Source of the DNA: a virus
Length of the DNA: 64,000 bases
Virus record (IMG/VR): IMGVR_UViG_3300041583_000385
Coordinates: 22,323-86,322 of that record
Strand: one strand, 5' to 3'
Shown one piece after another: positions 592 to 63,422 of this stretch; positions within the stretch are counted from its first letter, which is position 1, and every line of letters starts with the position of its first letter. Made by a program: the position numbers and the translations under genes. Below the pieces are notes generated by a model. The model made no database searches, was not told the DNA's origin, and worked only from the letters and a program-made list of their open reading frames with translations.

Positions 592-841
592 AAATTAGTA
601 TAAGTTGAGCTTACCCAACATTTTGCTTTATGCTATCATCTATCTATTGCCACAAACCCGACCATCAAAGGGGAACCGATACCCTAGGTCTGTACGTGTC
701 GCTACTTCCGTGGTGCTAACGACTATCCGAAGACCGCCTCCCACGTTAGGTTCAGTAGTGTCGAGGTTTCTCCAGTATCTCTATAAATGAGATTTACACC
801 CTTACGGGACCGGCGATAGCTTCTCTGACTTATACTAATTT
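592..841 (-). ncRNA. rnpB: minimal RNase P RNA-like gene (catalytic domain intact, S-domain reduced, no P18)
   Basis: GC-rich intergenic island. P1 14-bp inverted repeat (592-605/828-841); P2 GCUAUCG/UGAUAGC; P3 CCGGU/ACUGG; P4 ACC(U)CGACA/UGUUGGGU with bulged U; P5 CUAC/GUAG; CGGGU L15 motif; UAGAUAGAU (CR-IV-like); CAAAA...UA (CR-V-like). Confidence 0.85.
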
Positions 842-1311
842 ATTATTAATGCTAAATTATATTCTCTTTTTAATTTCATTGTCCAAGTTTCCACCTTCTG
901 TTTAACTAGGCGATGTAAACAATTATATTCTCTTTTATTAATTTCTTCTAAGTTACCAATATGTTTAGTAAATAATGACATTAAATCTTCTGGTGTCATT
1001 ATATCATTAAATCTACCACTAGGATCCAATAGGTTAATTTCGTTTATGAAATTAATTATAGGTAATACTTCATACCAGTTTTCACCCTTTTTATCCCATG
1101 TATTAAACCATTTACGTATAACTAAATGAAAATATGATTTATTTTCTAAAAAAAACTCATATGTCATATTTACCTCTTTTGGTTTAATACCAATATATTT
1201 ATCCCATTTTTCAATTAGATAATCTTTATCACAGTCTAATACTTTAATATCCATCGTTTGATGGAAATTAAATGTGAAATTAATAAGGTTATCTAATTGT
1301 CCCTTTGTCAT
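835..1311 (-). CDS. hypothetical protein with C-terminal tag (KREYNLALIIN)
   Basis: 158 aa ORF; ATG lies 5 nt downstream of a TATATTTG promoter element. Confidence 0.7.
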   Translation of the reverse strand: MTKGQLDNLINFTFNFHQTMDIKVLDCDKDYLIEKWDKYIGIKPKEVNMTYEFFLENKSYFHLVIRKWFNTWDKKGENWYEVLPIINFINEINLLDPSGRFNDIMTPEDLMSLFTKHIGNLEEINKREYNCLHRLVKQKVETWTMKLKREYNLALIIN

Positions 1312-1316
1312 AATTA

Positions 1317-1346
1317 CAAATATACGTAAAATTGAAAGAAAAACAA
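1317..1346 (-). promoter_or_regulatory. Bacteroidota housekeeping-sigma (early) promoter TTG-N19-TATATTTG
   Basis: minus strand TTG(1346-1344)-N19-TATATTTG(1324-1317); would drive ORF 835-1311 and the RNase P-like RNA. Confidence 0.75.
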
Positions 1347-1384
1347 GGGTTTTTTATATATAATTAAAATTTGAAAAATTTATT

Positions 1385-2272
1385 ATGAAAATAAAACATA
1401 AAGTTATAAAAGAGTTTCAATATCTTAGTCCAGATAAGAAAATCTTCATATTAAAACTTGGTACTATACTAAACAACTATAATTATAAAATTAAAGATGA
1501 ATTGATATTAGTTGATAAAGATATAATTGATAATAATCCACAATATTTTCAAGTAGTTGATTGGAAAGAAGAGATTCACTCATTTATAAAAACAAATAAA
1601 TTACCATCACCAAAAACATTAGCTAATAAGCTAATACCGTTTATGGAGGATATGATATTATCATCTATGGCTAAAAGTACTGATACTGGTGCACAAGTAG
1701 ATGAAGATAGATTAAAAGAAATCGAAAGTAAAGAATCTGATTTAAATAATAGAGAGAAGAGAATTAAAAGTAAAGAAGAAGAACTTGAAATTAGATCAAA
1801 CAGAGTTGAGAAGAGAGAGGAAGATTATAGAGAATGTCTTAAAGATTTAGATAGTAAAGAAGATTCACTCAGAGAAAAATCTAAAGATTTAAAAGAAAGA
1901 GAATTGGATGTGCAAGATAAGTTACAAGATATTAACGAAAAGGAAAGAAACCTTGATAGAACTATATTAGAATCATCTAAAGATATCGATATTAAATATA
2001 CTGAGTTACAATCAAAAATTGATAAAGATTTAAAAACTGTTACTGAGAAAGAGAAAGGATTAGAAATAACCGCAAAGGATATTAAAAAGAGAGAAGATAA
2101 ACTCTTAGATAGGGAAGATGAAATAGATGATTTATTAAGAGATATAGAAAGAAAGAAAGAAGAATTTCAAGATTGGGGTGAAGAGGTAGTTAAATTAGAC
2201 CAAGAAATAAAAGATTGGGAAAAACTACATTGGAAGTTCAAAAGATTGAAGAAGCCGCCTTCTGCTATTTAA
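1385..2272 (+). CDS. coiled-coil protein
   Basis: C-terminal half has charged heptads (KExxLxxRE repeats); TTTATATATA upstream. Confidence 0.75.
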   Translation: MKIKHKVIKEFQYLSPDKKIFILKLGTILNNYNYKIKDELILVDKDIIDNNPQYFQVVDWKEEIHSFIKTNKLPSPKTLANKLIPFMEDMILSSMAKSTDTGAQVDEDRLKEIESKESDLNNREKRIKSKEEELEIRSNRVEKREEDYRECLKDLDSKEDSLREKSKDLKERELDVQDKLQDINEKERNLDRTILESSKDIDIKYTELQSKIDKDLKTVTEKEKGLEITAKDIKKREDKLLDREDEIDDLLRDIERKKEEFQDWGEEVVKLDQEIKDWEKLHWKFKRLKKPPSAI

Positions 2273-2353
2273 CTATAAAAAATCCATATATCAAAGTAAC
2301 ATAAAAAACCGACCAGATAGTATAGTTTAAGGTATCATGATGTTACATGAAGT

Positions 2354-2608
2354 TTAAATAGAAAATAAAAAAAGGTCTATATCATCACCAATTGTGCTTT
2401 TGATTTTACTAATATCGGATTTATCGATAACATTGAATGATTGATATACATTAATTATATCATCATCACTTTGTTTATTTTGAATGAATTTAGAAATAGA
2501 GTCGCAAAACTTATTGAATTTGCTGATACCATCATATTTCTCAAGTACTGACCATAATATTTCTCTCTTTCCCATACTACAAGATAAGGAAAAGTATTGA
2601 ATTACCAA
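2354..2608 (-). CDS. hypothetical protein
   Basis: 84 aa ORF overlapping the stop of the upstream gene. Confidence 0.55.
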   Translation of the reverse strand: MVIQYFSLSCSMGKREILWSVLEKYDGISKFNKFCDSISKFIQNKQSDDDIINVYQSFNVIDKSDISKIKSTIGDDIDLFLFSI

Positions 2609-3306
2609 AGCATTTTAGCTACGGATTTATGTTGTTTATCTGTTAAATATCCTCTTTTCTCATAAAAATCAAGAACACTACTTAAAAATGAATTTGAATC
2701 TTTATTTAATTTGAATCTCAATTGTCTTATTAAATTAACCGACTTATCTGTGTCTTCATTAAGAATTTGGTTTAATTTAATATTTCTTAGCTCAGATGTT
2801 CCAATTTTTTTATTTAAGTACTCCATAAACTCATTCCATTGTACTTCTTCAATTGAATAATAATTTTTAGTAAATGGACTTATTATAATTTTTAAACCAT
2901 TACCCTCTTGTAGTAAGTATAGAGAATTAACGGGGCAATTTTGATACCTAACACTTATCCTAGTGTCTCTTTTTGATATATCAACAAATACAGTATCTAA
3001 GTCATAAAAGTTATCAGGATCAAATGTAAACACATCTGAATCAAATTCAAATTTACCAAATTCTGATAATAATTTTTCAATATCTTGTAATGTTAAATCA
3101 TTTATTAGAACACCATTATTTATAATAGCTTCAATTGGTTTGAAAAAGTCTTTTTTATTAAATATACTAGGATCCACACGAGCGAAATCAGCGGTCATAG
3201 ATGAAATACCATCTGGTATATAAGGAGTTGTTACCCCACCCCAAGCATTGTATTGGGGCACACCAAAATCATCATCTATTTGTAAACTTATGAAAAAATC
3301 TAACAT
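2602..3306 (-). CDS. hypothetical protein with internal RNIKLNQIL tag and C-terminal FLSSV..LTDKQ module
   Basis: 234 aa ORF in an early operon. Confidence 0.7.
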   Translation of the reverse strand: MLDFFISLQIDDDFGVPQYNAWGGVTTPYIPDGISSMTADFARVDPSIFNKKDFFKPIEAIINNGVLINDLTLQDIEKLLSEFGKFEFDSDVFTFDPDNFYDLDTVFVDISKRDTRISVRYQNCPVNSLYLLQEGNGLKIIISPFTKNYYSIEEVQWNEFMEYLNKKIGTSELRNIKLNQILNEDTDKSVNLIRQLRFKLNKDSNSFLSSVLDFYEKRGYLTDKQHKSVAKMLW

Positions 3307-3676: not shown

Positions 3677-3997
3677 TTACCTAATTAGAGATACTGTCCC
3701 ATAGAATATTTTAGAACATTCTGACCCATAAGCAACAACCTCATAAAGGTAAACACCTCTTTCACACAAATTCCCATTATATAATCCATTCCACTTATCA
3801 CCAACAAAAACTAACATACCCCATCGATTATAAATTGAAAGTTTATAACTTGTATAAGAGTTTATATATGTTGGGTAAAACTCACTATTCGTGCTCATTG
3901 TTGGTGTGAAAGCATTTGGTGAAATTATAGTATCATTACATTGTGAAAATGTAAATATTGATAATAGTAATAGAATTGATGTTAATAATATTTTCAT
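3677..3997 (-). CDS. signal peptide plus stand-alone T9SS type-B C-terminal sorting domain (CHU_C/gliding-motility CTD)
   Basis: MKILLTSILLLLSIFTFSQC signal peptide; PNAFTP, IYNRWGMLVF, WNG, GVYLY, GTVSLIR motifs; start moved to ATG 3997. Confidence 0.85.
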   Translation of the reverse strand: MKILLTSILLLLSIFTFSQCNDTIISPNAFTPTMSTNSEFYPTYINSYTSYKLSIYNRWGMLVFVGDKWNGLYNGNLCERGVYLYEVVAYGSECSKIFYGTVSLIR

Positions 3998-4001
3998 AAG
4001 T

Positions 4002-4574
4002 TTATTTATTATTAGACCAGCCTCTTTTTTCAATTTTTCTAAAATTAGGCTCATCTTTTATTTTATCTAAGTATTTTATTAATTTAAATAGGTATGTATC
4101 ATCAGTATCTCCGTAAAAAGGAGGCATCTTAATAACATTACCATATGAATCAATATGCTCTGGTTTATCATCAACCATCAATACTCTCTCCATATCATAT
4201 CCCCTTTTACTCAATTTGGAAATGTTTTTCTTATACACATAGTGTCCCATTCCACATCCCTCACCATGGTCATATTGTGGTGTGCAATTTTTCTCACTAT
4301 AAAAGAATTTCAATTTAGTAACATCAATATTCATTTTATCAACTAAAAATTCAGCATAGTCTTTACCAGCCGCTGTCCAAATAGCAACATCATAATTTTC
4401 AAATGCGAACTCAATAAATTCTTTTAGACCTGGTCGAAACATAGTTCTATACATACCATCTAAAACATCAAATGAGTTCTTTATAAAATCATAACTCTGT
4501 TTACTTATTTCACTCTCATAAACTGAGTGAAATAAACATTCATCTAAGTCTAATATTAATAATCTGTTTTTCAT
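4002..4574 (-). CDS. NIF/FCP1-like HAD phosphatase
   Basis: LILDLDECL, RPGLKEF, IWTA..KDYA, MVDD, PFYGD.DD.L motifs. Confidence 0.88.
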   Translation of the reverse strand: MKNRLLILDLDECLFHSVYESEISKQSYDFIKNSFDVLDGMYRTMFRPGLKEFIEFAFENYDVAIWTAAGKDYAEFLVDKMNIDVTKLKFFYSEKNCTPQYDHGEGCGMGHYVYKKNISKLSKRGYDMERVLMVDDKPEHIDSYGNVIKMPPFYGDTDDTYLFKLIKYLDKIKDEPNFRKIEKRGWSNNK

Positions 4575-5153: not shown

Positions 5154-5621
5154 ATGAAGTATATTAAACTATTTGAGAACTTTGACTTCCCACCAAATAT
5201 GAATATTGATGATATTGAGGAAATTTTCTTATCAGTATCAGATCTTGGATTTATATTTCATGACGTACACCTTTGTGATATAGCTTCAATGGGTGATAAA
5301 GATATCATTGGAGATCACAATGAATTAGATATGAATAACCCTCAACGTGCGGTGTCAATTAGATTGGTTATGGATAGAGAGCCTCATAAAAATACAGAAT
5401 TTCATCTCAGTGATGATTTTTATGAGGAATTTAAATTAACCATTGATCATTTTGAAAGTAGGTATGATTGTGAATTATCTAATATCTATATACGTAAAAA
5501 TAAACCAGTTTGGGTAAAAGATATCGATTCTATGAGAAAGTATATTAAATCTTTAACATCTATCAGTTGGATATCATCATTCGATTTAGCATTCACATTA
5601 AATGATACCATTGATAATTAA
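5154..5621 (+). CDS. N-tagged (MKYIKLFE) putative virion-internal paralog
   Basis: N-terminal tag, DIEEIFLSVSDLGF helix, TAATATATA upstream. Confidence 0.75.
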   Translation: MKYIKLFENFDFPPNMNIDDIEEIFLSVSDLGFIFHDVHLCDIASMGDKDIIGDHNELDMNNPQRAVSIRLVMDREPHKNTEFHLSDDFYEEFKLTIDHFESRYDCELSNIYIRKNKPVWVKDIDSMRKYIKSLTSISWISSFDLAFTLNDTIDN

Positions 5622-5951
5622 ATCCCTACGTATTGATATCAATTGTGTTAAAGATTCATCATCTTTTGGATCATAAGGTCTTCTATTCTCTAGAATCTTT
5701 TCCAAATTCTTTATTTGAGTATTAATAATAGGTATTGAAATTTCTTTCTTATTATAATTTAACCAATCCTCTTTTATGTATCTTGGCATGTTAGAAACGT
5801 CTTTTATATTTTCAATATCATCTTTTAGATAAAAATAGTTATCATTAACTTCTGTTATTATGGTAACAAAGCAAATTAAAGTATGATGTTCATATTCGGT
5901 AATTTGTGATATAATAACCCAAGGATCAATGTTTATTTCCCTATCATCCAT
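5598..5951 (-). CDS. hypothetical protein with C-terminal tag (RRDLIINGII)
   Basis: 117 aa ORF. Confidence 0.65.
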   Translation of the reverse strand: MDDREINIDPWVIISQITEYEHHTLICFVTIITEVNDNYFYLKDDIENIKDVSNMPRYIKEDWLNYNKKEISIPIINTQIKNLEKILENRRPYDPKDDESLTQLISIRRDLIINGII

Positions 5952-6558
5952 TATTTTTACTATAATCTTCTAGAAATACCTTTTCTTCATTTGATAGACT
6001 ATCCATTCCTTTTTTACCAATTTTATCCAAAATATCATCAATATCGAATCTGGAATCATTTTCTTGTTGAATCACTTCAATATCAGATGGTTGATTCATA
6101 CCCTTCATCTGATCTGGATTTATATTAAATGTTTTTTCAAAATCTGGTCTATAAAACTTGAACCCCAATACTTCAACAATATCATTTATTTGCTTTTTAT
6201 ATCTTTTCTCAATAGTAAATACGATATCATCAGTAACATTACTTTCTATTGATGATGATGTATAAATACACTTTTCTTTTTGAAATATAGCTATATCCTT
6301 ACTATCCATCATATAAACAATATCAACTTCTCCATGATCCTTTAACTCAGATTTAATAAAAACCGTATTATTAACACGGTTTTTAAATTCAGATTTCCCT
6401 CTTGATATATTTGATAAAATTTGTTTGAATTGTTCAGTTATGCCTTTTAACATAACATCCTTCTTAATTTTATTATACCACTCTGATATAACTTTATATA
6501 CCATACCACCGATAGCTAAACCAGCAAAAAATACAATTAGAATTTGTAAAATATTCAT
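5944..6558 (-). CDS. membrane-anchored protein with C-terminal DUF6576-like hairpin
   Basis: N-terminal TM helix; IDDILDKIGKKGMDSLSNEEKVFL C-terminus. Confidence 0.7.
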   Translation of the reverse strand: MNILQILIVFFAGLAIGGMVYKVISEWYNKIKKDVMLKGITEQFKQILSNISRGKSEFKNRVNNTVFIKSELKDHGEVDIVYMMDSKDIAIFQKEKCIYTSSSIESNVTDDIVFTIEKRYKKQINDIVEVLGFKFYRPDFEKTFNINPDQMKGMNQPSDIEVIQQENDSRFDIDDILDKIGKKGMDSLSNEEKVFLEDYSKNNG

Positions 6559-9865: not shown

Positions 9866-10114
9866 ATGAAAAAATTTACAGATAAAATAAACGAGTCTAA
9901 AGAGGAATTTGATCCTAAGGAATTAGAAATGGGTATTAAGATAGAATCTGAACATGGTGATGTTTTTGATGATTTAAGAAAATGGGTGGATGATAACTTT
10001 ATCGAAGTTGGAATGCCCTGGTCGGAAAGAACATTTTATGAAAAAATAGCAAAAGCTCATCTTAGAGAAATTCCGGATTACTATACTAGACTTAATAAAA
10101 TGGAAAATGAATGA
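9866..10114 (+). CDS. N-tagged small protein (DUF5661-like)
   Basis: MKKFTDKINES; GIKIESEH...KIAKAHLREIPDYYTRL. Confidence 0.7.
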   Translation: MKKFTDKINESKEEFDPKELEMGIKIESEHGDVFDDLRKWVDDNFIEVGMPWSERTFYEKIAKAHLREIPDYYTRLNKMENE

Positions 10115-10908
10115 AGTATCTAAAATCATATAAAATTTTCGAATCAAATAAAGAAATTATTGTTTCTACTCTAAGAGATATATGCTTAGAATTAGAGGAT
10201 AATGGATTTCTATTTAATTTTAATAGTGAGTCTGATGATAATAAAATAGAATACGTTATACATAGATTAGACTATGAGAGGTTCAGATTTACAGATGATG
10301 TATCAGAAGTTTTAGATAGGATATACCAATATATGAGAGAATTGGGTTGGTATTCACATTTATATTATAATCTTGGTGGTGGTCTAGAAAAGAAATTCTA
10401 TATACGACCAGATGGTAGAATGAGAGATCAAAGTTTATCTTGGATTGATAAAAACTGGCCATCTGTTTTGAGTATATCATTTCATTGGTATAAAATTTAT
10501 GATGATAAAATAAAAGAATCAAATAACTGGGATATTAGTATTGAAGAATTTTATGGTGATGATGTTATAAATACTATGAAAAGTGATATTTCATTTATTA
10601 ATGATAAATTAATAGAGATTAACGATATGGGTTATCACACAAATTCTGATTTCACATCAATGACACATGCTAAAGCTTCTAAAACACCAGTTATATACAT
10701 ATATATTGAAAATAATGATTTTGAGGAATTCTACAAAGATAATGATAAAGAATTAATCGATTCTAATTTAGATGATATAACTAATTATATGAAGTCAAAT
10801 GGATATGAGGTTAAAGCAATTCATGATAATAGAGAAGTAAAACCAATACATCTTAGTTTTATTAAATCAAAAACATCTTACCAAATAAGTTTTATTAAAA
10901 TCTCCTAG
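10111..10908 (+). CDS. N-tagged two-domain paralog
   Basis: MKYLKSYKIFES; internal KIKES separates two similar domains. Confidence 0.75.
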   Translation: MKYLKSYKIFESNKEIIVSTLRDICLELEDNGFLFNFNSESDDNKIEYVIHRLDYERFRFTDDVSEVLDRIYQYMRELGWYSHLYYNLGGGLEKKFYIRPDGRMRDQSLSWIDKNWPSVLSISFHWYKIYDDKIKESNNWDISIEEFYGDDVINTMKSDISFINDKLIEINDMGYHTNSDFTSMTHAKASKTPVIYIYIENNDFEEFYKDNDKELIDSNLDDITNYMKSNGYEVKAIHDNREVKPIHLSFIKSKTSYQISFIKIS

Positions 10909-10953
10909 TTGTATATTAACGAGATCGAAAGATATCAGAACTCCATTTTAAAT

Positions 10954-10979
10954 AAACAAAGTTTTTATTTTACTATATA
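10954..10979 (+). promoter_or_regulatory. putative middle promoter AAAC-N18-TATA
   Basis: AAAC 10954-10957, TATA 10976-10979, upstream of topo B. Confidence 0.6.
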
Positions 10980-12866: not shown

Positions 12867-13193
12867 ATGAGAACACGTGCCTGGCGCCGATATAAAGAGG
12901 AAACTATTGTTATTCGTAGGATAAAACGAATGGTTTCTTATGAGCTATCCTGGTGGGGTTTTCATGATGTTAATGATATTAAACATAAATACCCAACATT
13001 AACTGACTATATCGGAACAAAAACACACTTTCAATTTAAAAGTCACACAACTGATAGATATGATACAAGACACAAGGTTAAGTATTCAACTAACAAAGGT
13101 AAGTGTTATTGGAGAGATAATAATAAAAAAGGTACAAGGGAAAGAGCTAAGAAAGAATTTCTTAAAATGTTAAAAGAATATGGAATTAAATGA
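12867..13193 (+). CDS. basic hypothetical protein
   Basis: 108 aa, Arg/Lys-rich; TATATTTG 4 nt upstream of the ATG. Confidence 0.7.
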   Translation: MRTRAWRRYKEETIVIRRIKRMVSYELSWWGFHDVNDIKHKYPTLTDYIGTKTHFQFKSHTTDRYDTRHKVKYSTNKGKCYWRDNNKKGTRERAKKEFLKMLKEYGIK

Positions 13194-13725
13194 TATAATA
13201 CCACTAAAATTTATACCAACCATTGGTTGTGAATGGGTGGTTAAGAATAAATTCTTAATGTATAAACATTACGATCATATACCAGTTGCTTTTATAGAAA
13301 ATGATATTGTTTATGTGTTTCTTGATAATAAAATATCCAGACAAATATTAAAATTAACTAAATGGTTGATAAAAGGTGGTATTGAATTCTATTTTACAAG
13401 CCCACTTTTATCCAATCCAAAAGGTATATTTGAAGAAGATATACACAGTACCGTAATAAAACATTACTTATATTCCTATATACAAAAACCATTTTTCGAA
13501 GGATTTAAAAAAATAGAATTTGATATAATTGATAATATGGTTAAGTGGTGTATCAAAGAGAAGTGTATTGAGTTAATAAAAGATTGTTATGATCAAATAT
13601 TGATAAAGGTTAATAGATCTGAATATGATTACTGGTCTAATAAATCATCCTTTGAATATAAAGGTGAAATAAGAGAAGATTATAAGACACTTTATAGAGA
13701 TATACAAATTAATATTATTCTGTAA
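13180..13725 (+). CDS. hypothetical protein with C-terminal tag (RDIQINIIL)
   Basis: 181 aa ORF. Confidence 0.7.
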   Translation: MELNDIIPLKFIPTIGCEWVVKNKFLMYKHYDHIPVAFIENDIVYVFLDNKISRQILKLTKWLIKGGIEFYFTSPLLSNPKGIFEEDIHSTVIKHYLYSYIQKPFFEGFKKIEFDIIDNMVKWCIKEKCIELIKDCYDQILIKVNRSEYDYWSNKSSFEYKGEIREDYKTLYRDIQINIIL

Positions 13726-15361: not shown

Positions 15362-15730
15362 ATGGGATTTATAAATTTAAACGGTCAACAAGTACACACA
15401 TCTGTTATAAATAGTGGAACTTCCTCAACAATAACCAATTCAAGTGGTAGTCTATATACAACCACAACAACTAATAATACATTTATATATTCACAAAAAG
15501 CTAAATATTTTATTTTAGGTGAGGAATTTGAAATTGAGGGATATCAAGACCCAACAATTGCTATGATGATAGCATGTATCAATATAATGGGTAAGCCATT
15601 TTATGATGATTTAGTTAAACAACAAGTTAATATACCAGAGGAAATAGATGAATTCATAAAAAAGAAATTCATAATACTAGAGAGGGACAAGAAAATCGAA
15701 GAGATTATCACGACTAGAAATCAAACTTAA
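15362..15730 (+). CDS. hypothetical protein, S/T-rich N-terminus, C-terminal tag (RDKKIEEII)
   Basis: 122 aa; AAAC-N18-TATA upstream (15330-15355). Confidence 0.7.
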   Translation: MGFINLNGQQVHTSVINSGTSSTITNSSGSLYTTTTTNNTFIYSQKAKYFILGEEFEIEGYQDPTIAMMIACINIMGKPFYDDLVKQQVNIPEEIDEFIKKKFIILERDKKIEEIITTRNQT

Positions 15731-15769: not shown

Positions 15770-16750
15770 ATGAATTGCGATTTAATAATTGATGGAAATT
15801 ACATTCTTAGTCGTTTGGTTTTTACTTTACACAAAAATAATTTACTTTACGGGGCGTTACACAAAGCATTAGAAAACTCTATGCTTAAATATAAAAAATG
15901 GTACCCATTTGCTAATATTTACTTAGTATCTGATTCCAAAGAGAAATCCTGGAGAAAGAAATATATAAATGAGTATAAAGGTACTCGAAAGAAAAATACT
16001 GATATTGATTGGAAGTTTGTTTATGAAGCTTATGGTGAGTTCAAGGAGTCTATGGTTGGTACTATGGAAGTGCTTGAAGCACCACATATAGAAGGTGATG
16101 ATTGGATAGCATATTTGTGTGAAAAGGCTAATGGTGAAGGAAGATCAACACTTATAGTATCAAATGATTATGATATTAAACAAATAGTTAAGCATAGCTT
16201 TGATCCACTTTGGATTAATATGATGACTAATGAAATGTATAATAAGGAAAAGTTATTTCTACCAAAGAACTATCAAAGCTTTATTAACAAAGTGCAAAAG
16301 ATACCAAATGATGATATCTTTAATATAAATGATAATACTGAATTTTTGAGATTCTTAAATGGGTTTATCAAAAAGTATGAAGTTATTGAGATAGATTATA
16401 TGGAATCATTAATGGTTAAGATTATATCTGGTGATAAGTCCGATAATATAGGATCTGTTTGGTCTGTTACTAAAAATGGTAGAAAAAGGGGTATTGGATC
16501 TAAAGGTGCTCAAACTATTTATGATGAATATTTGGTTGAATTTGGGGAAATGAGTTTTGATGATCCAGACTTAAATGAAAATATAGCTGATTTAATTTGT
16601 GAAAAAAAGAAATTAAGTAAAAGTAATATAGAAGTGATTGTGGAAAATATAGAATCTAACTTTAGGTTAATAGATCTGAGATTATCTAGTCTACCGGTAG
16701 AAGTGGTTAATAAAATGAAAACAACACATGGACAAAAACAAAGCAATTAA
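15770..16750 (+). CDS. rnh: T4 RNase H-like 5'-3' exonuclease / flap endonuclease
   Basis: IIDGNY, SWRK...YKGTRK, EGDD, SNDYD, GDKSDNI, GIGSK. Confidence 0.9.
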   Translation: MNCDLIIDGNYILSRLVFTLHKNNLLYGALHKALENSMLKYKKWYPFANIYLVSDSKEKSWRKKYINEYKGTRKKNTDIDWKFVYEAYGEFKESMVGTMEVLEAPHIEGDDWIAYLCEKANGEGRSTLIVSNDYDIKQIVKHSFDPLWINMMTNEMYNKEKLFLPKNYQSFINKVQKIPNDDIFNINDNTEFLRFLNGFIKKYEVIEIDYMESLMVKIISGDKSDNIGSVWSVTKNGRKRGIGSKGAQTIYDEYLVEFGEMSFDDPDLNENIADLICEKKKLSKSNIEVIVENIESNFRLIDLRLSSLPVEVVNKMKTTHGQKQSN

Positions 16751-17117
16751 GAAGTGGACTCCTACTCCTATAATGGAGAACTTAGGTATTATGAATAAGC
16801 ATTTGTCAGATACAATGTGTTTGTTTTGTGAGGATTATATTAGTAATAATCCTGATAGTCAAGATTTACCAGAAAGGGTAAATCAACTCTTGCTTAAATT
16901 ACAAAATACTGAAAAGAGTGAGATTAAAAGAACATTATATAATCCAATAACTGGTGAAATTGAATATGAATTAGAGAATGGGTTTATTATAACAGAAAAG
17001 AATAAATTTAAAAGAGAACCAACAACTGATGAATTAATATACTTATTTGGGGTTGATTTTGTTAGAGAGTTAAATCCACAAATGTGGAGAGAATATTCAT
17101 TAAATAAAATATTATAA
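16728..17117 (+). CDS. hypothetical protein with C-terminal tag (REYSLNKIL)
   Basis: N-terminus KKWTPTPIMENLGI recalls the KKWxPxLE motif of T4-like major capsid proteins. Confidence 0.65.
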   Translation: MDKNKAIKKWTPTPIMENLGIMNKHLSDTMCLFCEDYISNNPDSQDLPERVNQLLLKLQNTEKSEIKRTLYNPITGEIEYELENGFIITEKNKFKREPTTDELIYLFGVDFVRELNPQMWREYSLNKIL

Positions 17118-19038: not shown

Positions 19039-19244
19039 ATCAAGAGTACCATATACACAACAATTACAAATGGAATCCATCATAAGAGATAATATAACTA
19101 ACATTCGATCAAAGAATGATTTTATCCCTGACTCTATTAACGATAAACTAAATTCACTATGAAGAATGACTAGAGATATAACCAAAGATCTATATAATAC
19201 AATGATGGCTATGAATAGAATGAGAAAAATTAAAAATATATTTA

Positions 19245-19391
19245 ATGAGAGCTAAGTGGGAATTAATGAAGGAATTAATGAAGACTGGTGAACAGTATAT
19301 TAGTACAGATTGGGCTATAAAAAATATATTAAATATATCAAAGTAAGAATTCAGAAAAGAGAAAATTAAAAGAATATTTGATGGAGAGTAA
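19245..19391 (+). pseudogene. small C-tagged ORF with an in-frame TAA
   Basis: MRAKWELMK...STDWAIKNILNISK*EFRKEKIKRIFDGE*. Confidence 0.45.
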
Positions 19392-39976: not shown

Positions 39977-40281
39977 ATTATGTTTATATAATATCTTGTC
40001 AACGTGGACAAGCACTACCAGAAATATACTCTATGTGGATCACATATGAAAAAGCAATAACCGCTTATTATGATTGTTGTGTTAGTGATGGTAATAGAAC
40101 AAGTTTTAAGAGATTGTATAAATTTCCATTAGATGAACTATACTGTGATATAAACAAATGGAGTGATATTAAGATGGGTAAAACTTGTAAATACCTACTT
40201 AAATTCGATTTCAAAGATTTAAAATCAGAACATCTATCAGTGAGTCGTGATAATAAGATAAGTGAATTGGGTATTGATTAA
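39973..40281 (+). CDS. hypothetical protein with C-terminal tag (RDNKISELGI)
   Basis: 102 aa ORF. Confidence 0.7.
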   Translation: MNYVYIISCQRGQALPEIYSMWITYEKAITAYYDCCVSDGNRTSFKRLYKFPLDELYCDINKWSDIKMGKTCKYLLKFDFKDLKSEHLSVSRDNKISELGID

Positions 40282-44379: not shown

Positions 44380-44829
44380 ATGAAACATTTAAAAAAATAT
44401 AACGAGTCTGTTGATGGATTTGAGGTTAATAAATCTATTACTGATTATATAAAATTAGTATTCGCTGATTTAATTGGTGAAGTTGAGGATGAATTTGAAT
44501 TTTAAGATGGTGTTTCAATGGAAAGTAATAAACCATTTGTAGAGTGTTATTTTTCTATAACTCTACCTACTTTACATAAACCAAATCAAAAACTAATAGG
44601 GTATAGTATTGGTACCGCTAAGGGATCTATATCAGAGTTTGTTAAAAACAATGAAAATATATCTGATATATTAAAAGATATAGAAACTGGTATTAAAAGA
44701 ATTAAGGATGAATACCCTATCATAAGACATGAAATCGAAAAGGAGTGTGATGAAATTCACAGGGATAATATATTATCTTATTTAACAGTTCATATTGAGT
44801 GGGGTGAACACACAACAATATTAAATTAA
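44380..44829 (+). pseudogene. N-tagged paralog with one in-frame TAA (44503-44505)
   Basis: MKHLKKYNES...EFEF*DGVS, in frame with ORF 44518-44829. Confidence 0.65.
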
Positions 44830-45225
44830 TATTTGTTGTAACTTAATATCCCTTTCCCATTCTAAATATAGAACTCTAAATGCTTCATCTGAATAAGTAA
44901 ACCCAAATATCCAAGTTTTACCACCATACCAACTAGACCAAACTTCTGTATATAAATTGGAATTTTTAAATTCTAATTCTAACCTTTCAGCTTCTTCTCT
45001 TGTTGTGTGGTGGGAAAATCCAGTATCAGATAAATAAAAATCTAATACATCTATTTCTATTTTACCACTATTCTTCCAGTTATTCAAATACCATTCACCT
45101 TGAAGTGATTCAACACTATTTATAAAATCATTTCTATCACAATAACCCCTTGTTACTATATCAAATAAATCAATTGGTTTTAATGATTTAATGATTCTAT
45201 ATCTTTTAAAGATTTTGACTCTCAT
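44821..45225 (-). CDS. hypothetical protein with C-terminal tag (RDIKLQQIL)
   Basis: 134 aa ORF. Confidence 0.7.
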   Translation of the reverse strand: MRVKIFKRYRIIKSLKPIDLFDIVTRGYCDRNDFINSVESLQGEWYLNNWKNSGKIEIDVLDFYLSDTGFSHHTTREEAERLELEFKNSNLYTEVWSSWYGGKTWIFGFTYSDEAFRVLYLEWERDIKLQQILI

Positions 45226-47264: not shown

Positions 47265-47341
47265 CGGCTTAGGACCCGTTGTAGTTTCGCCCCAACTGGG
47301 TAGGACTAAAGAAGAGGTTGAATTCGCTACTCAACCTCTTC
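47263..47341 (+). other. three-hairpin structured element (terminator and/or ncRNA candidate)
   Basis: AACGG/CCGTT; TAGTTT..CCC/GGG..GGACTA; 11-bp GAAGAGGTTGA/TCAACCTCTTC with ATTCGCTAC loop. Confidence 0.55.
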
Positions 47342-47726
47342 ACTTTTTAAATAAGTCATTCATAATGAACTCTCTAAGTTCACTCTTAGGTGTTAGTTCC
47401 CTTTCATAGATATGTAATTTGAAAATAACTTTAACAACACCTTTACTAAAACTTGATGTTATTGTAGATCTCTCAAATTGAGAATCCACCATCCATAAAC
47501 CCTGATTAAATTCTTCACTAAAGTTTTTAACACTATCATTCTTATCAACAAGTAACCTAAAGTGTAGGTTATTATCAGAATCCTTTATATCAGTTCTCAT
47601 TTTGAAATAATTAGTAAGTGGAATAGTTACCGTTATCTTAACAGGCTCCATAGAATACCACATATCATCCTTCATTTCACTTTTTAGTACACAAGGGTAC
47701 TTTTCATCTTTATAGATAAATTTCAT
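47340..47726 (-). CDS. hypothetical protein with C-tag-like end (REFIMNDLF)
   Basis: 128 aa ORF. Confidence 0.65.
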   Translation of the reverse strand: MKFIYKDEKYPCVLKSEMKDDMWYSMEPVKITVTIPLTNYFKMRTDIKDSDNNLHFRLLVDKNDSVKNFSEEFNQGLWMVDSQFERSTITSSFSKGVVKVIFKLHIYERELTPKSELREFIMNDLFKK

Positions 47727-47999
47727 ATTCCTAATTCTTTTAGTTTATCATTTCTATCATCTTCCAATCCTTCCCAAACCCCATCCTTTACAATTACCAT
47801 CTTCCTCACCACTCCAAATATCTAAATCTAATTTACAACCTGGGATGTGCTCACCACCTAAACCAGCTTCATATTCGAATTTACAAGTCCAGCACTTTTT
47901 ATTTACCTTGTTGAAAGAGCAATCAGGTTCGTGTGATTTTATTTTACTTGAATCAATATCTGTTTTTGAACAAAAGTCACACTTCCATACCTGTTTCAT
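47723..47999 (-). CDS. Cys-rich protein; +1 G frameshift hides C-terminal tag RNDKLKELGI
   Basis: CxxC, HxxxC, CxxC; removing one G at 47779-47782 gives GWVWEGLEDDRNDKLKELGI* whose stop overlaps the next ATG. Confidence 0.65.
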
Positions 48000-48565
48000 A
48001 TTCCTAATTCTTTTAGTTTAATATCCCTTAATAAGGATATAAGAGCACTCCATTTTTCTGGTTTGATTTTAAAATTCTCATCAATTACTTCCTTTATATC
48101 TTTTGTGTTGAAAAATTTATTATCCATTATGTAATCAACACGTCCTGGATTAGCACTTATTTTAACTGGATCTAATATTCTTTTTATTAAATACTTCTTA
48201 TCAATATTTAATTTACTGAATGGTCTTGAACCAGAAGCTGATGTGAAATTTTCCGGGTATTCATCAACCAACTCTTGTAGAAGTTCACATACAATATGTA
48301 TTCTAGCGTATTTACATTCTAGTGGTATAAAGCATGGATTAGTAATATCACCCTTTTCTATTAAGAATAAAGCACAATCTTTAGAAGCATTTTTAAGAGA
48401 TAATTGTAATAGATTACCTTTACATTTATCAAATTCATCATTTCTTAATAATTTAAAGTTCTCTTTTAGATTATCGATTTGGTTATCATGTACATTACTT
48501 TCTAGAGCATCTTTTAGACGCTTTCGATGTTTTAACCATTTTTCATTTTTGTTATTACTGAACAT
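47996..48565 (-). CDS. hypothetical protein with C-terminal tag (RDIKLKELGI)
   Basis: 189 aa; TATATTTG upstream; weak ankyrin-like NLLQLSLKNASKDCALFLIEKG. Confidence 0.7.
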   Translation of the reverse strand: MFSNNKNEKWLKHRKRLKDALESNVHDNQIDNLKENFKLLRNDEFDKCKGNLLQLSLKNASKDCALFLIEKGDITNPCFIPLECKYARIHIVCELLQELVDEYPENFTSASGSRPFSKLNIDKKYLIKRILDPVKISANPGRVDYIMDNKFFNTKDIKEVIDENFKIKPEKWSALISLLRDIKLKELGI

Positions 48566-51887: not shown

Positions 51888-52163
51888 ATGAAATATTTAA
51901 AGACATTTGAATCACATGGAACACATTTAGCAGAAGATATTGCTAAAGACTTATTACCTAGATTAAAAGAGATAAAATCTGAGAAGGGTTTCTTTACAAC
52001 AAGTATGTTTGATAACTATATGGAGGAAAGAAAAGGTAACCTTAAATTAACTGATGAAGTTATGGGTTATTTGGTAAACATGGGTTTTGACTTCGATACT
52101 GATGAAGATGATGAAGATGATGGATTTGATGATATATCAATGTTTGATTATAACTTAAATTAA
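51888..52163 (+). CDS. N-tagged acidic protein
   Basis: MKYLKTFES; acidic tail. Confidence 0.75.
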   Translation: MKYLKTFESHGTHLAEDIAKDLLPRLKEIKSEKGFFTTSMFDNYMEERKGNLKLTDEVMGYLVNMGFDFDTDEDDEDDGFDDISMFDYNLN

Positions 52164-52341: not shown

Positions 52342-53031
52342 ATGAAATATATTAAGAAATATAAAATATTCGAAAGTTCAAGTAATATAGATGAAATCTG
52401 TAATAAATATGGTATAGAAAATTATACCATAAATGAGGATGGATCTATTGATGTTGAGGGTAATGTTAATTTAAATGATAGAGTAGTATTATCTGAATTG
52501 CCAATTAAATTTGGTAATGTAGGTGGTAATTTTAATTGTAGTGGAAATAAATTAACGAGTCTAGAAGGAAGTCCTAAAAGTGTAGGTGGTAATTTTAATT
52601 GTAGTGGAAATAAATTAACGAGTCTAGAAGGAAGTCCTAAAAGTGTAGGTGGTAATTTTAATTGTAGTAGAAATAAATTAACGAGTCTAGAAGGAAGTCC
52701 TAAAAGTGTAGGTGGTGGTTTCTATTGTAGTGGAAATAAATTAACGAGTCTAGAAGGAAGTCCTAAAAGTGTAGGTGGTGGTTTCTATTGTGATGATAAT
52801 CAATTGGTTAGTCTAGAGGGAAGTCCTAAAAGTGTAGGTGGTGGTTTCTATTGTGATGGTAATCCAGTTTATGAATTGTGGAAATTATTTAAGGATTATT
52901 CAAAAGTTGAATTATTCAATGATTATGATATGATAATTAATGACCAAATAATAATTATTAGATTAAATGACTTTTTAGAATCTATTAATAAAGAACCTAT
53001 TAATAAAGTTAAAGGATATAAAAGTATTTAA
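52342..53031 (+). CDS. N-tagged leucine-rich-repeat-like protein
   Basis: MKYIKKYKIFES; 21-aa repeats VGGxFxCSxNxLTSLEGSPKS. Confidence 0.85.
   Translation: MKYIKKYKIFESSSNIDEICNKYGIENYTINEDGSIDVEGNVNLNDRVVLSELPIKFGNVGGNFNCSGNKLTSLEGSPKSVGGNFNCSGNKLTSLEGSPKSVGGNFNCSRNKLTSLEGSPKSVGGGFYCSGNKLTSLEGSPKSVGGGFYCDDNQLVSLEGSPKSVGGGFYCDGNPVYELWKLFKDYSKVELFNDYDMIINDQIIIIRLNDFLESINKEPINKVKGYKSI
52519..52863 (+). repeat. 63-nt coding tandem repeat, 5 full units plus a partial
   Basis: units start at 52519, 52582, 52645, 52708, 52771, 52834. Confidence 0.9.
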
Positions 53032-53273: not shown

Positions 53274-53549
53274 TTATTTTATTATTTTATCTATTTTATT
53301 ATTTCTCTCAATTGATGATACATATAATATAACATCTTTATAATAAGTCTCTGTTACTGTAAATGGTATAAATTTACCCGTAATTGGTTGAATATTTATA
53401 GTGTTTTCATCATTGTGTGTTCTACCATCAACAACCTCAAAATCATTTATGGTTAGTATATCTGATCCAGAAATACCCATATTTGGACTTCTTCTATAAT
53501 TCAAATATACTAAAATATAACCTTTATTTATACTATTTTTTGTAAACAT
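53274..53549 (-). CDS. hypothetical protein with C-terminal tag (RNNKIDKII)
   Basis: 91 aa ORF. Confidence 0.65.
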   Translation of the reverse strand: MFTKNSINKGYILVYLNYRRSPNMGISGSDILTINDFEVVDGRTHNDENTINIQPITGKFIPFTVTETYYKDVILYVSSIERNNKIDKIIK

Positions 53550-53726
53550 TTAACTTAAAATTGTATTAATTTTCTTATCCCTCTTTTTTGCTAAGTGTTC
53601 ATTAACTATTTCTTGTTCTTCCTTTTGGTAAATCGAATTCCATATGCTTGTTTTTTAGTATTGAGTATTGGTATAAAGTATTGATTATGACGAATTAAAA
53701 ATTTAGCAACTCCATTAACACGTCAT
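53550..53726 (-). pseudogene. broken ORF ending in C-terminal tag RDKKINTIL
   Basis: frame WNSIYQKEEQEIVNEHLAKKRDKKINTILS* with no intact start. Confidence 0.45.
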
Positions 53727-56232: not shown

Positions 56233-57000
56233 AATTCTACATTTATATATTCTTTATCATGTCCAATATCGGGAGATGTTATGTATGTTGGTAAATCAAA
56301 TAACCCAAAGACTAGATTTTCAAAACATATACAAATGGCTGGTAACAACCATGATAAGAATAAATGGATAAATGATCTTAAATTCATAAAATTAAAACCA
56401 ATATTATCAATAATTGATGAGGTATTAATGTGTGATTGGAAAGATAAAGAAAAATTCTACATATCCAAATTCAGAAAATTAGGATGTAATTTGTTTAATA
56501 CGTCAATGGGTGGAGAGGGTTCTGATTCTGGTAATCAAACAAGTTTTAAACCAGGTAATGGGTCTAAAAGAATCGTTTGTCTAATGTGTGATGGTTCCTA
56601 TCACAAAACATTCGAATCAACTATAAAAGCTGCTGGGTATATAGGAAAGCATAATATAAGTAGTGTTTTAAAGGGTGTTACGAAAAAAGCGGGTGGGTAT
56701 ATTTGGATATATGAAGATAGGTATAGAATAATGTCAATTGTGGATATTCGTAAATTTGTTGAAAATTCAAATGATAATAGATCTAGGTTAAATGGTGAGG
56801 AAAGTAGATTTAAGAAGGGTAATGATGCTTGGAATAAAAAAAGTGTTAATCAATATACAAGAGATGATGTTTTTATAAAAACATGGGAAAGTGTTAAAAT
56901 ATCAACACTCTCACTGGGTAAGAAAGTAAATTCTAGTGGGATTTCGAGATGTGCTCGAGGTGATAGAAAAACAGCATTTGGGTATAAATGGAAATATTAA
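56233..57000 (+). mobile_element. GIY-YIG homing endonuclease with NUMOD1 domains
   Basis: TFIYSLSCPISGDVMYVGKS in frame upstream of ATG 56281; QYT..FIKTWES, AFGYKWKY. Confidence 0.82.
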
Positions 57001-58700: not shown

Positions 58701-59165
58701 ATTTTCAGTATAATATTCCTAGATATCGATGGTGTTTTAAGAACACTAAAAAGTGATTTAGAATGGTCAAGTATTCTAAAAGAACCTGTGCCTACAAAAT
58801 ATACTGATAGGAGACTTAGTAGTGAAGCTATTAGAAATCTAAATGAAATAGTATCATATACTAGATCAAAAGTGGTAATAACATCCAATTGGAGATTGGG
58901 TCTTACTCTAACTCAATTAAAAATAATTCTTAGAAGTGAAGGTTTTCACGGTGATGTTGTTGGTAAGACTGATATCGGTGTTAGTAGAGGTGAAGAGATA
59001 TTAGAGTGGATAGAATTAAAGGGAGTTACTGATTATGTGGTAATTGACGATCAAGTAGGAGATATAATATCTGTTTTAGGTGATAAACGTGTTATTGAGG
59101 TTGATCATAAAAAAGGACTAGATAGAAATGTTGTTGATAAAGCAATAGATATATTATTTCAATAA
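58701..59165 (+). CDS. HAD-superfamily phosphatase (RNA-repair HAD_SAK-like), non-ATG start
   Basis: IIFLDIDGVL upstream in frame; VVITSNWR, RGEEI, YVVIDD; TATATTTG at 58681. Confidence 0.8.
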   Translation: MFSIIFLDIDGVLRTLKSDLEWSSILKEPVPTKYTDRRLSSEAIRNLNEIVSYTRSKVVITSNWRLGLTLTQLKIILRSEGFHGDVVGKTDIGVSRGEEILEWIELKGVTDYVVIDDQVGDIISVLGDKRVIEVDHKKGLDRNVVDKAIDILFQ

Positions 59166-59510
59166 AGGAGATTTTGTCATTTTAGACCACTTATCAAATT
59201 CATACCAAATTTTATCACCACCACCTTTTTTACTTCGGTAATTCATACCATAAGATTTTAATGTTTCATCAAATTCTGATATTTCTTCCCTATTATAAAG
59301 GTTATCATCATCCTCATAATAATTACCCTCATAATTATCATCTACTAAAACATCATCTTTATCCTCTATTAATAGGTGTATCATTTTACCTTCTTTCCAT
59401 ATCTCTATTACCAATCCTAAATCTTGTAGATCTATTGTAAGGTCTTTAAGTATTTGTATTTTTTGATCAACCAAACTTTCAAATAATTTATATGGTATTA
59501 TTTTATCCAT
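59154..59510 (-). CDS. N-tagged paralog
   Basis: MDKIIPYKLFES...LKDLTIDLQDLGL. Confidence 0.72.
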   Translation of the reverse strand: MDKIIPYKLFESLVDQKIQILKDLTIDLQDLGLVIEIWKEGKMIHLLIEDKDDVLVDDNYEGNYYEDDDNLYNREEISEFDETLKSYGMNYRSKKGGGDKIWYEFDKWSKMTKSPLLK

Positions 59511-60713: not shown

Positions 60714-60731
60714 ATAAATAAAAAGAGAAAA

Positions 60732-60900: not shown

Positions 60901-60933
60901 TAAAACAAAATAATTAAACAAAAAGTAAAAAAT

Positions 60934-62067: not shown

Positions 62068-62089
62068 TCTTAGAAATAAGATTCAGAAC

Positions 62090-62118
62090 AGGGGGTATCT
62101 TAGATATCCCCTTTTTTT
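62090..62118 (+). terminator. intrinsic terminator
   Basis: GGGGGTATCT-TAGATATCCCC-T7. Confidence 0.85.
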
Positions 62119-62141
62119 GTTTAAAACAAACGAAAAATAAA

Positions 62142-62402
62142 ATGATATATAATGGTATGAGTGATGAAGAAAAAGTCGAAGTACAAATAGTTTTAAAGAA
62201 CCACTTTGGTGAGTTTGTTGGTAAGAAATCAACACTTAACGAAGAGCAATACAAAAACTTATTACAGATGTCCAAAAGTTTTTATGTTGGAACTGGGTTT
62301 GAGTTAACGTGTGAAGATGGGACATTTGTTGTTTTTCCTCCAGAGATAGTTCGACAGTCAATACTACAAGTAAAAAAAATTAAAAATGAAGAAAATGTTT
62401 AA
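62142..62402 (+). CDS. hypothetical protein
   Basis: 86 aa; AAAC-N18-TATA (62124-62149) favours the second ATG (MSDEEK). Confidence 0.7.
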   Translation: MIYNGMSDEEKVEVQIVLKNHFGEFVGKKSTLNEEQYKNLLQMSKSFYVGTGFELTCEDGTFVVFPPEIVRQSILQVKKIKNEENV

Positions 62403-63045
62403 AAACAGATTTAAGAAATTCGGAGGAGACCATATTCCAGATATAATTGAATATATCAAGGAATTTATTGAAAATGATCCAACAGCAACTATAACAGTTG
62501 GGTGTGATTCTATACAAAAGCGTAGAAAGACTGTCTATGCTAATACTATAATGCTTTATAACTCAGATATTAAAAAGGGAGCACATGTTGTTTTCTTTAG
62601 AGAATCTTGTACTAAGATTAGAGATAATCAAGATAGACTATACAGAGAAGCTCAGTGGTTACATGATGTTGGTACTTACCTTGATAAGGAATTATCAGAA
62701 TTCTACGTTAGGAAAGATTTAACAGATAATGAGATAAAGAGATATAAGTATCACTTGTTAAAATGTTCTGGTGAATATACTAATGTTGAGACGCATCAAG
62801 AGGATGCGGTTATGAGAAATCTTATACTAACACCACTTGATAAGTTAGAACCTAGGTTAGTTGATTTACATGTTGACTTCAATCCATTTGAAGGTAATAT
62901 AGATGAAAAGGGTGTTCGTAAGAATAAATCATATGCTGCTTATAAAGCATATAGCCCTTGGTTGAGAGGTTTAGGTTTCAGAACTTGGGCTAAACCGCAA
63001 GCATTCGCCGCAACTTCGGCCGCCGATCTTTTATTAAAAGATTAA
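62386..63045 (+). CDS. RNase H-like YkuK/DUF458 family protein
   Basis: VGCDS, RLYREA, HVDFN, KPQAFAATSAAD. Confidence 0.82.
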   Translation: MKKMFKNRFKKFGGDHIPDIIEYIKEFIENDPTATITVGCDSIQKRRKTVYANTIMLYNSDIKKGAHVVFFRESCTKIRDNQDRLYREAQWLHDVGTYLDKELSEFYVRKDLTDNEIKRYKYHLLKCSGEYTNVETHQEDAVMRNLILTPLDKLEPRLVDLHVDFNPFEGNIDEKGVRKNKSYAAYKAYSPWLRGLGFRTWAKPQAFAATSAADLLLKD

Positions 63046-63422
63046 TGAGATTTGAAATAAATAAATATCTATTAATGAAGTTGGGTTGGCTTGAATACTA
63101 CTACATCTTTGGTCAATGCTACTCAAATGGAATCGGACTAAAACATGGTTTAAATTTATTTGAATCTGATGATTTAGTCCGATTCTTTATTGATATTAAA
63201 GAAAGAAAAATATGCTATTTAGTAAAAGAACTTTCTGATTTTGAAAAACAAAAATCAAAAAATACATATAAATTTATAATTGCAGATTATACATCTGATG
63301 TACCTGATATTAGCTTTACTGAGTTTAACTCAAATGATTATCTATTTAAGAGTATAATCAAACATGAAGCTTGTAGTAGTGAATATGAAAGACATTTTAA
63401 AATAAATAAACTATTAAAATAG
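63045..63422 (+). CDS. hypothetical protein with C-terminal tag (RHFKINKLL)
   Basis: 125 aa ORF. Confidence 0.65.
   Translation: MRFEINKYLLMKLGWLEYYYIFGQCYSNGIGLKHGLNLFESDDLVRFFIDIKERKICYLVKELSDFEKQKSKNTYKFIIADYTSDVPDISFTEFNSNDYLFKSIIKHEACSSEYERHFKINKLLK

Follow-up and report, generated by a model that had tools for sequence, protein, structure and literature searches.

Adaptors of the SspB type are tethered to the N-domain of ClpX by a C-terminal XB peptide. The PRANC domain of poxvirus proteins is folded, spans ~40-50 residues and binds Skp1, a component of a ubiquitin system that has no counterpart in bacteria. The capsid-targeting sequence of the phage T4 proteins IPI-III and Alt is N-terminal, ~10 residues long and followed by an L/I-x-E site, and is cut off by the prohead protease. 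The gp43, gp55 and gp33 proteins of T4 and RB69 bind the clamp through C-terminal tails, which in T4 are acidic and hydrophobic; here, as with PIP-box peptides, one hub reads many tails. We describe a C-terminal tag carried by unrelated small proteins encoded in a 64,000-nucleotide stretch of viral DNA (the window), and compare it with these systems. The window comprises bases 22,323-86,322 of one 86,322-bp contig with 28% G+C, which is an IMG/VR virus record (IMGVR_UViG_3300041583_000385) of 12% CheckV completeness. Its topoisomerase II genes share 76-78% DNA identity with those of the 635-kb uncultured phage LR745206.1, and the large subunit shares 85% protein identity. By this sequence kinship the window is a fragment of a huge phage, belonging to the group for which we take Mahaphage and Lak to be the clade names.

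Enrichment, selection and structure of the C-terminal tag

Gene sets were greedy open reading frame (ORF) calls made without a gene finder, comprising 140 contig ORFs for pattern searches and 156 for matrix searches. In the set of 140, the strict pattern R[DENKH]xK[IL]xx[IL] started 15 times within the last 16 residues of an ORF and once at 24,196 body positions, a 192-fold C-terminal enrichment per position. An earlier note on this DNA, which had drawn attention to the motif, asked how it would fare against shuffled residues; shuffles gave on average 0.07-0.22 matches and never more than 3, against the 15 real ones. A position matrix trained only on LR745206.1 and then applied to the 86-kb contig gave a bimodal result, in which 25 of the 156 ORFs scored 9.9-26.1 bits at the C-terminus and the rest scored 0.5 or less, while more than 8 bits was reached at 3 of 23,552 body positions. 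Tagged proteins thus make up ~1 in 6 proteins of the contig, all of them small and otherwise unrelated. In LR745206.1 a looser pattern tagged 135 of 960 ORFs, and the strict pattern gave 102 tail versus 22 body matches (99-fold per position); the matrix count of 156 tagged ORFs in this genome is circular, as the matrix was trained on it. Across the huge-phage clade the tagged share of ORFs is 14-21%, with tagged lengths of 41-731 aa. A scan of IMG/VR with the narrow variant RDxKLxxLGI-stop returned 89 matches compared to 3 for a scrambled control. Frames of at least 43 codons ended in 83 of the 89, and many of the matches shared a contig with others, these contigs being 150-483 kb long. The shuffles, the body-versus-tail counts and the scrambled-pattern scan rule out a composition artefact, and a chance origin of the C-terminal motif is excluded.

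The sequence logo shows a hydrophobic residue at position -4, S/E at -3, R at 1, D/E/N at 2, K at 4, I/L at 5, I/L at 8 and L/I/G at 9, with any residue at 3, 6 and 7. Position 9 is followed by 0-3 residues in 122 of 156 cases and by 7 at most, and these last residues are variable. A sub-type of the tag, R-K-x-K-I-x-x-I-[F/Y/W], characterises mini-proteins that are 41-83 aa long. In the 135 LR745206.1 tags, synonymous codons at R1, D/N/E2, K4 and I/L5 match genome usage (for Arg, chi2 4.1, 5 degrees of freedom); the sole exception among the tag positions is Ile8, which favours ATA (chi2 16.8). Selection therefore acts on the tag peptide, and a signal at the DNA or RNA level is ruled out, ATA at Ile8 being the exception.

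An arrest peptide would also show peptide-level selection, and the tag might act in cis on the ribosome, in termination or in coupling to the next gene. The tag always lies near the stop codon, and TGA stops and ATGA overlaps are over-represented (44/135 tagged ORFs compared to 184/960 of all ORFs). However, the spacing to the stop varies and the final residues are not conserved, tagged genes also end operons (for example, at the convergent ends at 40281 and 44821), and the conserved positions recur with a helical period, which indicates a surface rather than the ribosome tunnel. The related idea that the tagged proteins form one hyper-diverged family is countered by the two folds described below, by the range of lengths and by fusions to capsid pieces. 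In either form this explanation, which involves no shared partner, is very improbable.

AlphaFold models of two tagged proteins place the tag in the terminal helix. ORF 47996-48565 is predicted to be an all-helical repeat (pLDDT 83), with the tag ending its terminal helix (residues 173-186 of 189), and ORF 44821-45225 to be an alpha/beta protein (pLDDT 87) whose terminal helix, residues 113-133 of 134, has the tag as its second half. Plotted on a helical wheel, the conserved positions cluster on a single face, and the invariant Arg sits at the centre of the hydrophobic stripe. The tag window is basic, with a net charge of +1.65. The helix had been called amphipathic in the earlier note, which agrees with conservation on one face but not with the hydrophobic moment; this is not raised (0.23 compared to 0.29 for untagged C-termini) because the Arg sits centrally in the conserved face.

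A conserved internal copy of the tag in ORF 2602-3306 has 53 residues beyond it, and a free C-terminus is therefore not required. This copy bears on the suggestion that the tag is a turnover or stability signal, either a degron read by a host protease or, conversely, a protective cap. The C-terminal position and the restriction to small proteins without a known family would suit such a signal, and a protease of the host would be available to small and huge phages alike. However, the 0-7 residues that separate the tag from the end, together with the internal copy, argue that the free end is not read, and the tag lies in a predicted folded helix, unlike the unstructured ssrA-type tails. We consider a turnover signal improbable.

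We propose instead that the tag is a portable, peptide-level docking helix. It makes up the final turns of a terminal alpha-helix, and its consensus is hydrophobic(-4)-x-x-x-R1-[D/E/N]2-x-[K]4-[I/L]5-x-x-[I/L]8-[L/I/G]9, followed by 0-7 residues. It would plug many unrelated small soluble proteins into one common receptor, and this receptor would be a conserved machine of a Bacteroidota host. We prefer the reading of a docking helix recognised by one common, conserved host receptor, but hold it only tentatively. Peptide-level selection, the unrelated folds, long retention and a concerted shift within another phage clade are the reasons for suggesting one shared reader.

The tag was retained in 19 of 19 orthologue pairs, with 71% identity in the tag window compared to 58% in the bodies. 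For the family of ORF 47996-48565, 37 homologues were drawn from a library of 1.84 billion proteins. All 37 of these distant homologues keep R1, L/F/I at position 5 and L/I at position 8, and 36 have D/E at position 2 and G/L at position 9; K4 is found in only 14. A shifted tag, E-[Y/H]-R-K-x-[I/K/R]-I-x-x-L-[L/I], is carried by 63 of the 286 ORFs sampled in the distant huge phage LR756504.1, whose topoisomerase is 43% identical. For LR756500.1, a 150-kb sample with 190 ORFs contained no tagged ORF. Four of these 190 ORFs end in F-D-N, possibly another kind of terminal motif.

Concerted drift within a genome would also be expected if the tags bind each other, as a portable oligomerisation or co-assembly helix that forms homo-oligomers or mixed assemblies, with the Arg and the acidic residue as inter-helix salt bridges. 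Such pairing needs no outside partner, would suit small and huge phages alike and a restriction to phages, and the conserved R1 beside D/E at position 2 would suit an antiparallel arrangement. Against this, more than 100 proteins with one zipper would cross-pair randomly, so that selection should diversify the tag; self-pairing gives no reason for the tag to be nearly the same in phages that share hardly any genes; and the conserved stretch spans only about two heptads. Tag-tag pairing is, in our estimate, quite unlikely.

Bodies, phage range and candidate receptors

That the bodies are unrelated, as the earlier note had stated, was borne out by BLASTP, in which the best pair among 24 contig bodies had E = 0.025 and the 135 tagged bodies of LR745206.1 fell into 134 clusters. 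They include helical-repeat, alpha/beta and Cys-rich types. The tagged proteins are mostly soluble and mildly acidic, and transmembrane (TM)-like segments are no commoner among them (10/156) than among untagged proteins (75/590). Few belong to known families. Pfam assigned a family to 0 of 17 tagged ORFs of the window, to 1 of 134 tagged LR745206.1 proteins above the cut-off (a UVR motif; no polymerase domain) and to 1 of 65 tagged IMG/VR peptides above the cut-off (DUF1660), and PHROGs matched 1 family, of unknown function, for 35 proteins. A Foldseek search of both models against the PDB gave nothing at E <= 0.001, and the top match was a designed ankyrin (E 0.19). In the ESM Atlas, one body had an ankyrin-like lead, and a search with a tag region had no usable result.

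Some bodies are conserved copies of phage head-protein segments. In LR745206.1, a 243-aa tagged protein matches capsid protein residues 344-530 (E 5e-15), a 75-aa tagged protein matches capsid protein residues 494-539, and two tagged proteins match the prohead protease (phrog_207). In the window, the first 35 residues of ORF 16728-17117 resemble the LR745206.1 capsid N-terminus (40% identity, pairwise E 5e-7). The copied capsid parts are thus the N-terminus, the C-terminal half and the last 46 residues; the copied protease is a 707-aa protein with repeats. ORF 39590-39802 was also considered as a copy of the prohead protease repeats, which was unsupported (E 0.41). The tagged proteins with capsid or protease pieces are:
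LR745206.1, 207176-207907
LR745206.1, 255010-237(-)
LR745206.1, 194897-195382(-)
LR745206.1, 460435-460686(-)
the window, 16728-17117, plus strand

The tag is not confined to huge phages. Four small phages of 29-32 kb (G002-G005; 93-100% complete, two with terminal repeats) each encode 2-5 tagged small proteins by pattern. PHROGs searches of 81 proteins of at least 110 aa from three of them (G002-G004) identified terminase, portal, tail, sigma factor and methylase families, and no chaperone, clamp or polymerase family. By BLASTP, no protein is common to all four small phages and the huge phages. Although their head proteins have no kinship to the huge phage's T4-type capsid protein, the small phages use a nearly identical tag. 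In two related small phages, a tagged protein of 77-85 aa (G004, 123-356; G005, 19202-19459) is encoded directly 5' of, and overlapping, the gene for the large terminase, a position usually taken by a small terminase subunit.

We infer that the tag binds anything at all, that it has a single receptor and that the receptor is host-encoded. A host-encoded receptor is favoured because the tag is nearly the same in phages whose gene contents hardly overlap. The host itself is likely a member of the Bacteroidota, judging from sequence: the phage DnaK shares 54-74% identity with its counterparts in the genomes found, which are mostly Bacteroidota, and a CHU_C type IX secretion signal domain (Pfam E 6.7e-9, above the cut-off) lies on the 125-aa untagged ORF 3677-4054, minus strand. 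On this phage protein, CHU_C is a Bacteroidota-specific export label. These observations agree with the Flavobacterium host of the earlier note at the level of the phylum and do not single out that genus. No cultured relatives with proteomics were found; the best cultured topoisomerase match was 44% identical.

Alternatively, the receptor may be phage-encoded and co-evolve with the tag in each phage clade. Candidates would be the DnaK/DnaJ/GrpE set, a component of the prohead (capsid protein, scaffold or protease) or some small protein whose kinship across phages escapes BLASTP. Four tagged genes are interleaved with grpE and dnaJ in the window; for two of these, 37670-38209 and 38206-38520, the LR745206.1 orthologue is tagged as well. 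The consensus is clade-specific, the sampled stretch of LR756500.1 lacks the tag and some tagged bodies copy head proteins, all of which would fit a phage receptor. However, the 81 proteins scanned from three of the four 29-32-kb phages yielded no match to a DnaK, clamp or AAA+ family, no small-phage protein is shared with huge phages by all four, and the nearly identical tag accompanies unrelated head proteins. A receptor in the head is further countered by a separate N-terminal tag, M-K-Y-L-K-x-Y-K-I-F-E-S, which is present on 9 contig ORFs and on ~30 in LR745206.1 and never shares a protein with the C-terminal tag. It resembles the T4 capsid-targeting sequence with its following I/L-x-E prohead-protease site, and looks like a head-loading signal; because of this likeness, the C-terminal tag is less probable as a signal of that kind. 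We think a phage-encoded receptor unlikely.

The portable docking helix of the earlier note is supported in part, by peptide selection, unrelated bodies, two folds, conservation and concerted drift, but its phage-only partner candidates are not. Phage MoxR or phage DnaK/DnaJ/GrpE as the general receptor is contradicted by the same tag in complete 29-32-kb phages, with none of the chaperone families in the three that were scanned. The phage DnaK/DnaJ/GrpE set is thereby excluded in that general role, whereas the DnaK system of the host could fill it.

Several points weigh against a docking helix with a host receptor. The tag is continuous with a structured helix and has no flexible linker, and the conserved face may partly pack on its own body. 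Pairing between tags would yield the same concerted evolution. The argument for a host receptor rests on a BLASTP-level absence of a shared phage protein. A search for host proteins ending in RDxKLxxLGI-stop gave 0 matches in 5 host genomes and 301 Flavobacteriales, a search of low power. This null result could be counted here too, yet it is neutral, neither helping nor hurting, because the exact variant represents 3 of at least 135 LR745206.1 tags.

A more specific form of the docking-helix proposal is that the tag is a viral adaptor handle. More than 100 baits per genome would capture different targets, and the shared helix would pass all of them to one conserved host machine. The baits would be the helical repeats, Cys-rich mini-domains and capsid or prohead-protease pieces, and the targets could be, for example, host immune sensors of head proteins. 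The machine would be a protease, unfoldase or chaperone, and the 30-kb phages would tap the same one. This would be a bacterial counterpart, by analogy, of the poxvirus ankyrin/F-box strategy; we regard it as speculative and doubtful.

Huge phages consist largely of small proteins without assigned function, and 14-21% of the ORFs of one clade bear a recognisable handle. If there is one receptor, a single peptide pull-down would identify a central node of infection, and more than 100 orphan proteins per genome would fall into one functional class. The tagged capsid and protease fragments raise the testable idea that they are decoys or adaptors against head-protein sensors, and a tag in both 30-kb and 600-kb phages would point to a common host vulnerability in Bacteroidota.

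Tag members and other features of the window

All 20 peptides quoted in the earlier note were found in the sequence. Among the 19 that it had placed at protein ends, 16 end clean ORFs, and those assigned to 19245, 47723 and 53550 do not. The internal RNIKLNQIL of ORF 2602-3306 is real and retained in the orthologue. The matrix scan placed 17 of the 25 contig tags within the window, including one, on ORF 47340-47726, that was absent from the earlier list. Tags ending clean ORFs are:
835-867, minus strand: REYNLALIIN and stop, end of ORF 835-1311 (158 aa); the weakest member at 9.9 bits
5598-5627, minus strand: RDLIINGII and stop, end of ORF 5598-5951 (117 aa)
13696-13725, plus strand: RDIQINIIL and stop, end of ORF 13180-13725 (181 aa); retained in the orthologue
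15683-15730, plus strand: RDKKIEEII, 6 more residues and stop, end of ORF 15362-15730 (122 aa)
17088-17117, plus strand: REYSLNKIL and stop, end of ORF 16728-17117 (129 aa)
20246-20287, plus strand: RDKKIEHIL, GDIK and stop, end of ORF 19790-20287 (165 aa)
33709-33741, minus strand: RNEKLNDIGI and stop, end of ORF 33709-33873 (54 aa)
34076-34105, minus strand: RNANLEKLV and stop, end of ORF 34076-34486 (136 aa)
38177-38209, plus strand: tag of 10 residues and stop, end of ORF 37670-38209 (179 aa), immediately 3' of grpE
38488-38520, plus strand: tag of 10 residues and stop, end of ORF 38206-38520 (104 aa), immediately 5' of dnaJ
39767-39802, plus strand: R-K type tag of 11 residues and stop, ORF 39590-39802 (70 aa), which overlaps the dnaJ end
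40246-40281, plus strand: RDNKISELGID and stop, end of ORF 39973-40281 (102 aa)
44821-44853, minus strand: RDIKLQQILI and stop, end of ORF 44821-45225 (134 aa)
47340-47375, minus strand: looser tag REFIMNDLFKK and stop, end of ORF 47340-47726 (128 aa)
47996-48028, minus strand: RDIKLKELGI and stop, ORF 47996-48565 (189 aa, helical-repeat body); the top score, 26.1 bits
53274-53306, minus strand: RNNKIDKIIK and stop, end of ORF 53274-53549 (91 aa)
63390-63422, plus strand: RHFKINKLLK and stop, end of ORF 63045-63422 (125 aa)

The remaining copies are:
2761-2787, minus strand: RNIKLNQIL, an internal copy within ORF 2602-3306 (234 aa) with 53 residues after it, present in the orthologue too
10920-10955, plus strand: tag-like RDRKISELHFK and stop, right after a stop codon in the spacer before a topoisomerase gene
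19353-19391, plus strand: R-K type tag RKEKIKRIFDGE and stop, split from ORF 19245-19346 by an in-frame TAA at 19347-19349
47723-47755, minus strand: RNDKLKELGI and stop, overlapping the 80-aa Cys-rich ORF 47757-47999 but read in another frame
53550-53582, minus strand: RDKKINTILS and stop, in a 25-codon frame without ATG, GTG or TTG

At the in-frame TAA at 19347-19349, the LR745206.1 orthologue reads Glu. The change of frame at 47723-47755 is a frameshift, either genuine or an assembly error. The tag-like stretch at 10920-10955 is probably a relic; tblastn with an 81-aa LR745206.1 protein gave no match there.

The ORFs of the window with the N-terminal tag are:
10111-10908, plus strand
21839-22714, plus strand
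29308-30396, minus strand
30381-30713, minus strand
34547-34723, plus strand
51888-52163, plus strand
52342-53031, plus strand
59154-59510, minus strand

Pfam identified DnaK, GrpE, DnaJ, NusG, RNA ligases and topoisomerase II among the window genes. The phage's own copies of the chaperone genes are:
26196-28076, minus strand: DnaK
37134-37670, plus strand: GrpE
38523-39593, plus strand: DnaJ

Another shared terminal module was observed, the 32-residue C-terminal DUF6576 (Pfam), which is 62% identical between the proteins of window ORF 5944-6558, minus strand, and contig ORF 20788-21384, minus strand; these are ~200 aa each and dissimilar elsewhere. The window also holds three paralogous GIY-YIG/NUMOD homing-endonuclease genes, at 28266-29099, 41396-42541 and 56281-57000.

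A gp55-like late sigma ORF is present in LR745206.1 (189151-189649) and in 79 IMG/VR relatives (L193-L272) and always encodes 121 aa. By pattern, a mini-ORF with an R-K type tag lies at or just past its end at 41 of the 79 loci scored. Of the 41 loci, 32 have this mini-ORF in the +1 frame, as does LR745206.1, where the overlap is the last 29 bases. The gp55-like ORF itself has no tag at its end at any of the 79 loci scored.

Comparison with known systems

No description of the tag was found in the literature searched, including the portions seen of PMC7824862 and bioRxiv 10.64898/2026.10.24.761521, whose supplements lay outside the search, and the tag looks like an undescribed C-terminal helix of these phages. 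It does not behave as an ssrA-type degron, in which the free end is what counts, since 0-7 variable residues follow position 9 and one copy is 53 residues inside its protein. Membrane-targeting helices of the MinD/FtsA type are strongly amphipathic and terminal, with little sequence-specific conservation. The tag does not fit this description, as its hydrophobic moment is 0.23 versus 0.29 and its Arg and acidic residue are invariant or nearly so. The type IX secretion system (T9SS) C-terminal domain is a beta-sandwich of 70-100 residues on proteins with a signal peptide, whereas the tag is helical and 9-13 residues long, TM-like segments occur in 10/156 tagged versus 75/590 untagged proteins, and CHU_C is on an untagged ORF.

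Microcompartment encapsulation peptides and encapsulin cargo-loading peptides are short terminal helices or peptides that load unrelated cargo onto a shell. The '-LGI' ending of some tags is superficially like the encapsulin loading peptides; unlike shell-loading peptides, however, the tag does not have a raised hydrophobic moment, and to our knowledge ~100 or more shell cargo types per genome would be unprecedented. As with the T4 capsid-targeting sequence, a short peptide common to unrelated phage proteins would serve as an address label. The tag is C-terminal, however, and the N-terminal MKYLKxYKIFES fits that role better.

The clamp-binding tails share with the tag a place at the extreme C-terminus and an [IL]-x-x-[IL]-[LF] pattern, and the tagged mini-ORF at or just past the gp55-like gene in 41 of 79 IMG/VR relatives adds to the likeness. 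However, T4/RB69 clamp tails are acidic and hydrophobic and belong to the polymerase, the late sigma factor and its co-activator, whereas the tag has a charge of +1.65 and an invariant Arg, the gp55-like ORF is untagged in 79 of 79 and no polymerase was found among 134 tagged proteins. Searches of LR745206.1 and G002-G005 with the gp45 clamp families PF09116 and PF02916 returned nothing at E <= 1, although a diverged clamp could escape them.

The XB tail of SspB, like the proposed docking tag, is a short, movable C-terminal peptide by which a cargo-binding protein docks to a hub. It follows a long flexible linker and is found on one or a few adaptors per cell, whereas the tag continues a folded helix and is carried by 14-21% of ORFs; both models show it ending a continuous helix, which in this respect sets it apart from an XB-type tail. 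The poxvirus ankyrin-repeat/PRANC proteins place one C-terminal module on many binding domains to reach one host machine, as we propose for the tag. Its conserved stretch of 9-13 residues is unlike the PRANC domain, while one tagged family, with a helical-repeat and weakly ankyrin-like body, recalls the poxvirus ankyrin proteins.

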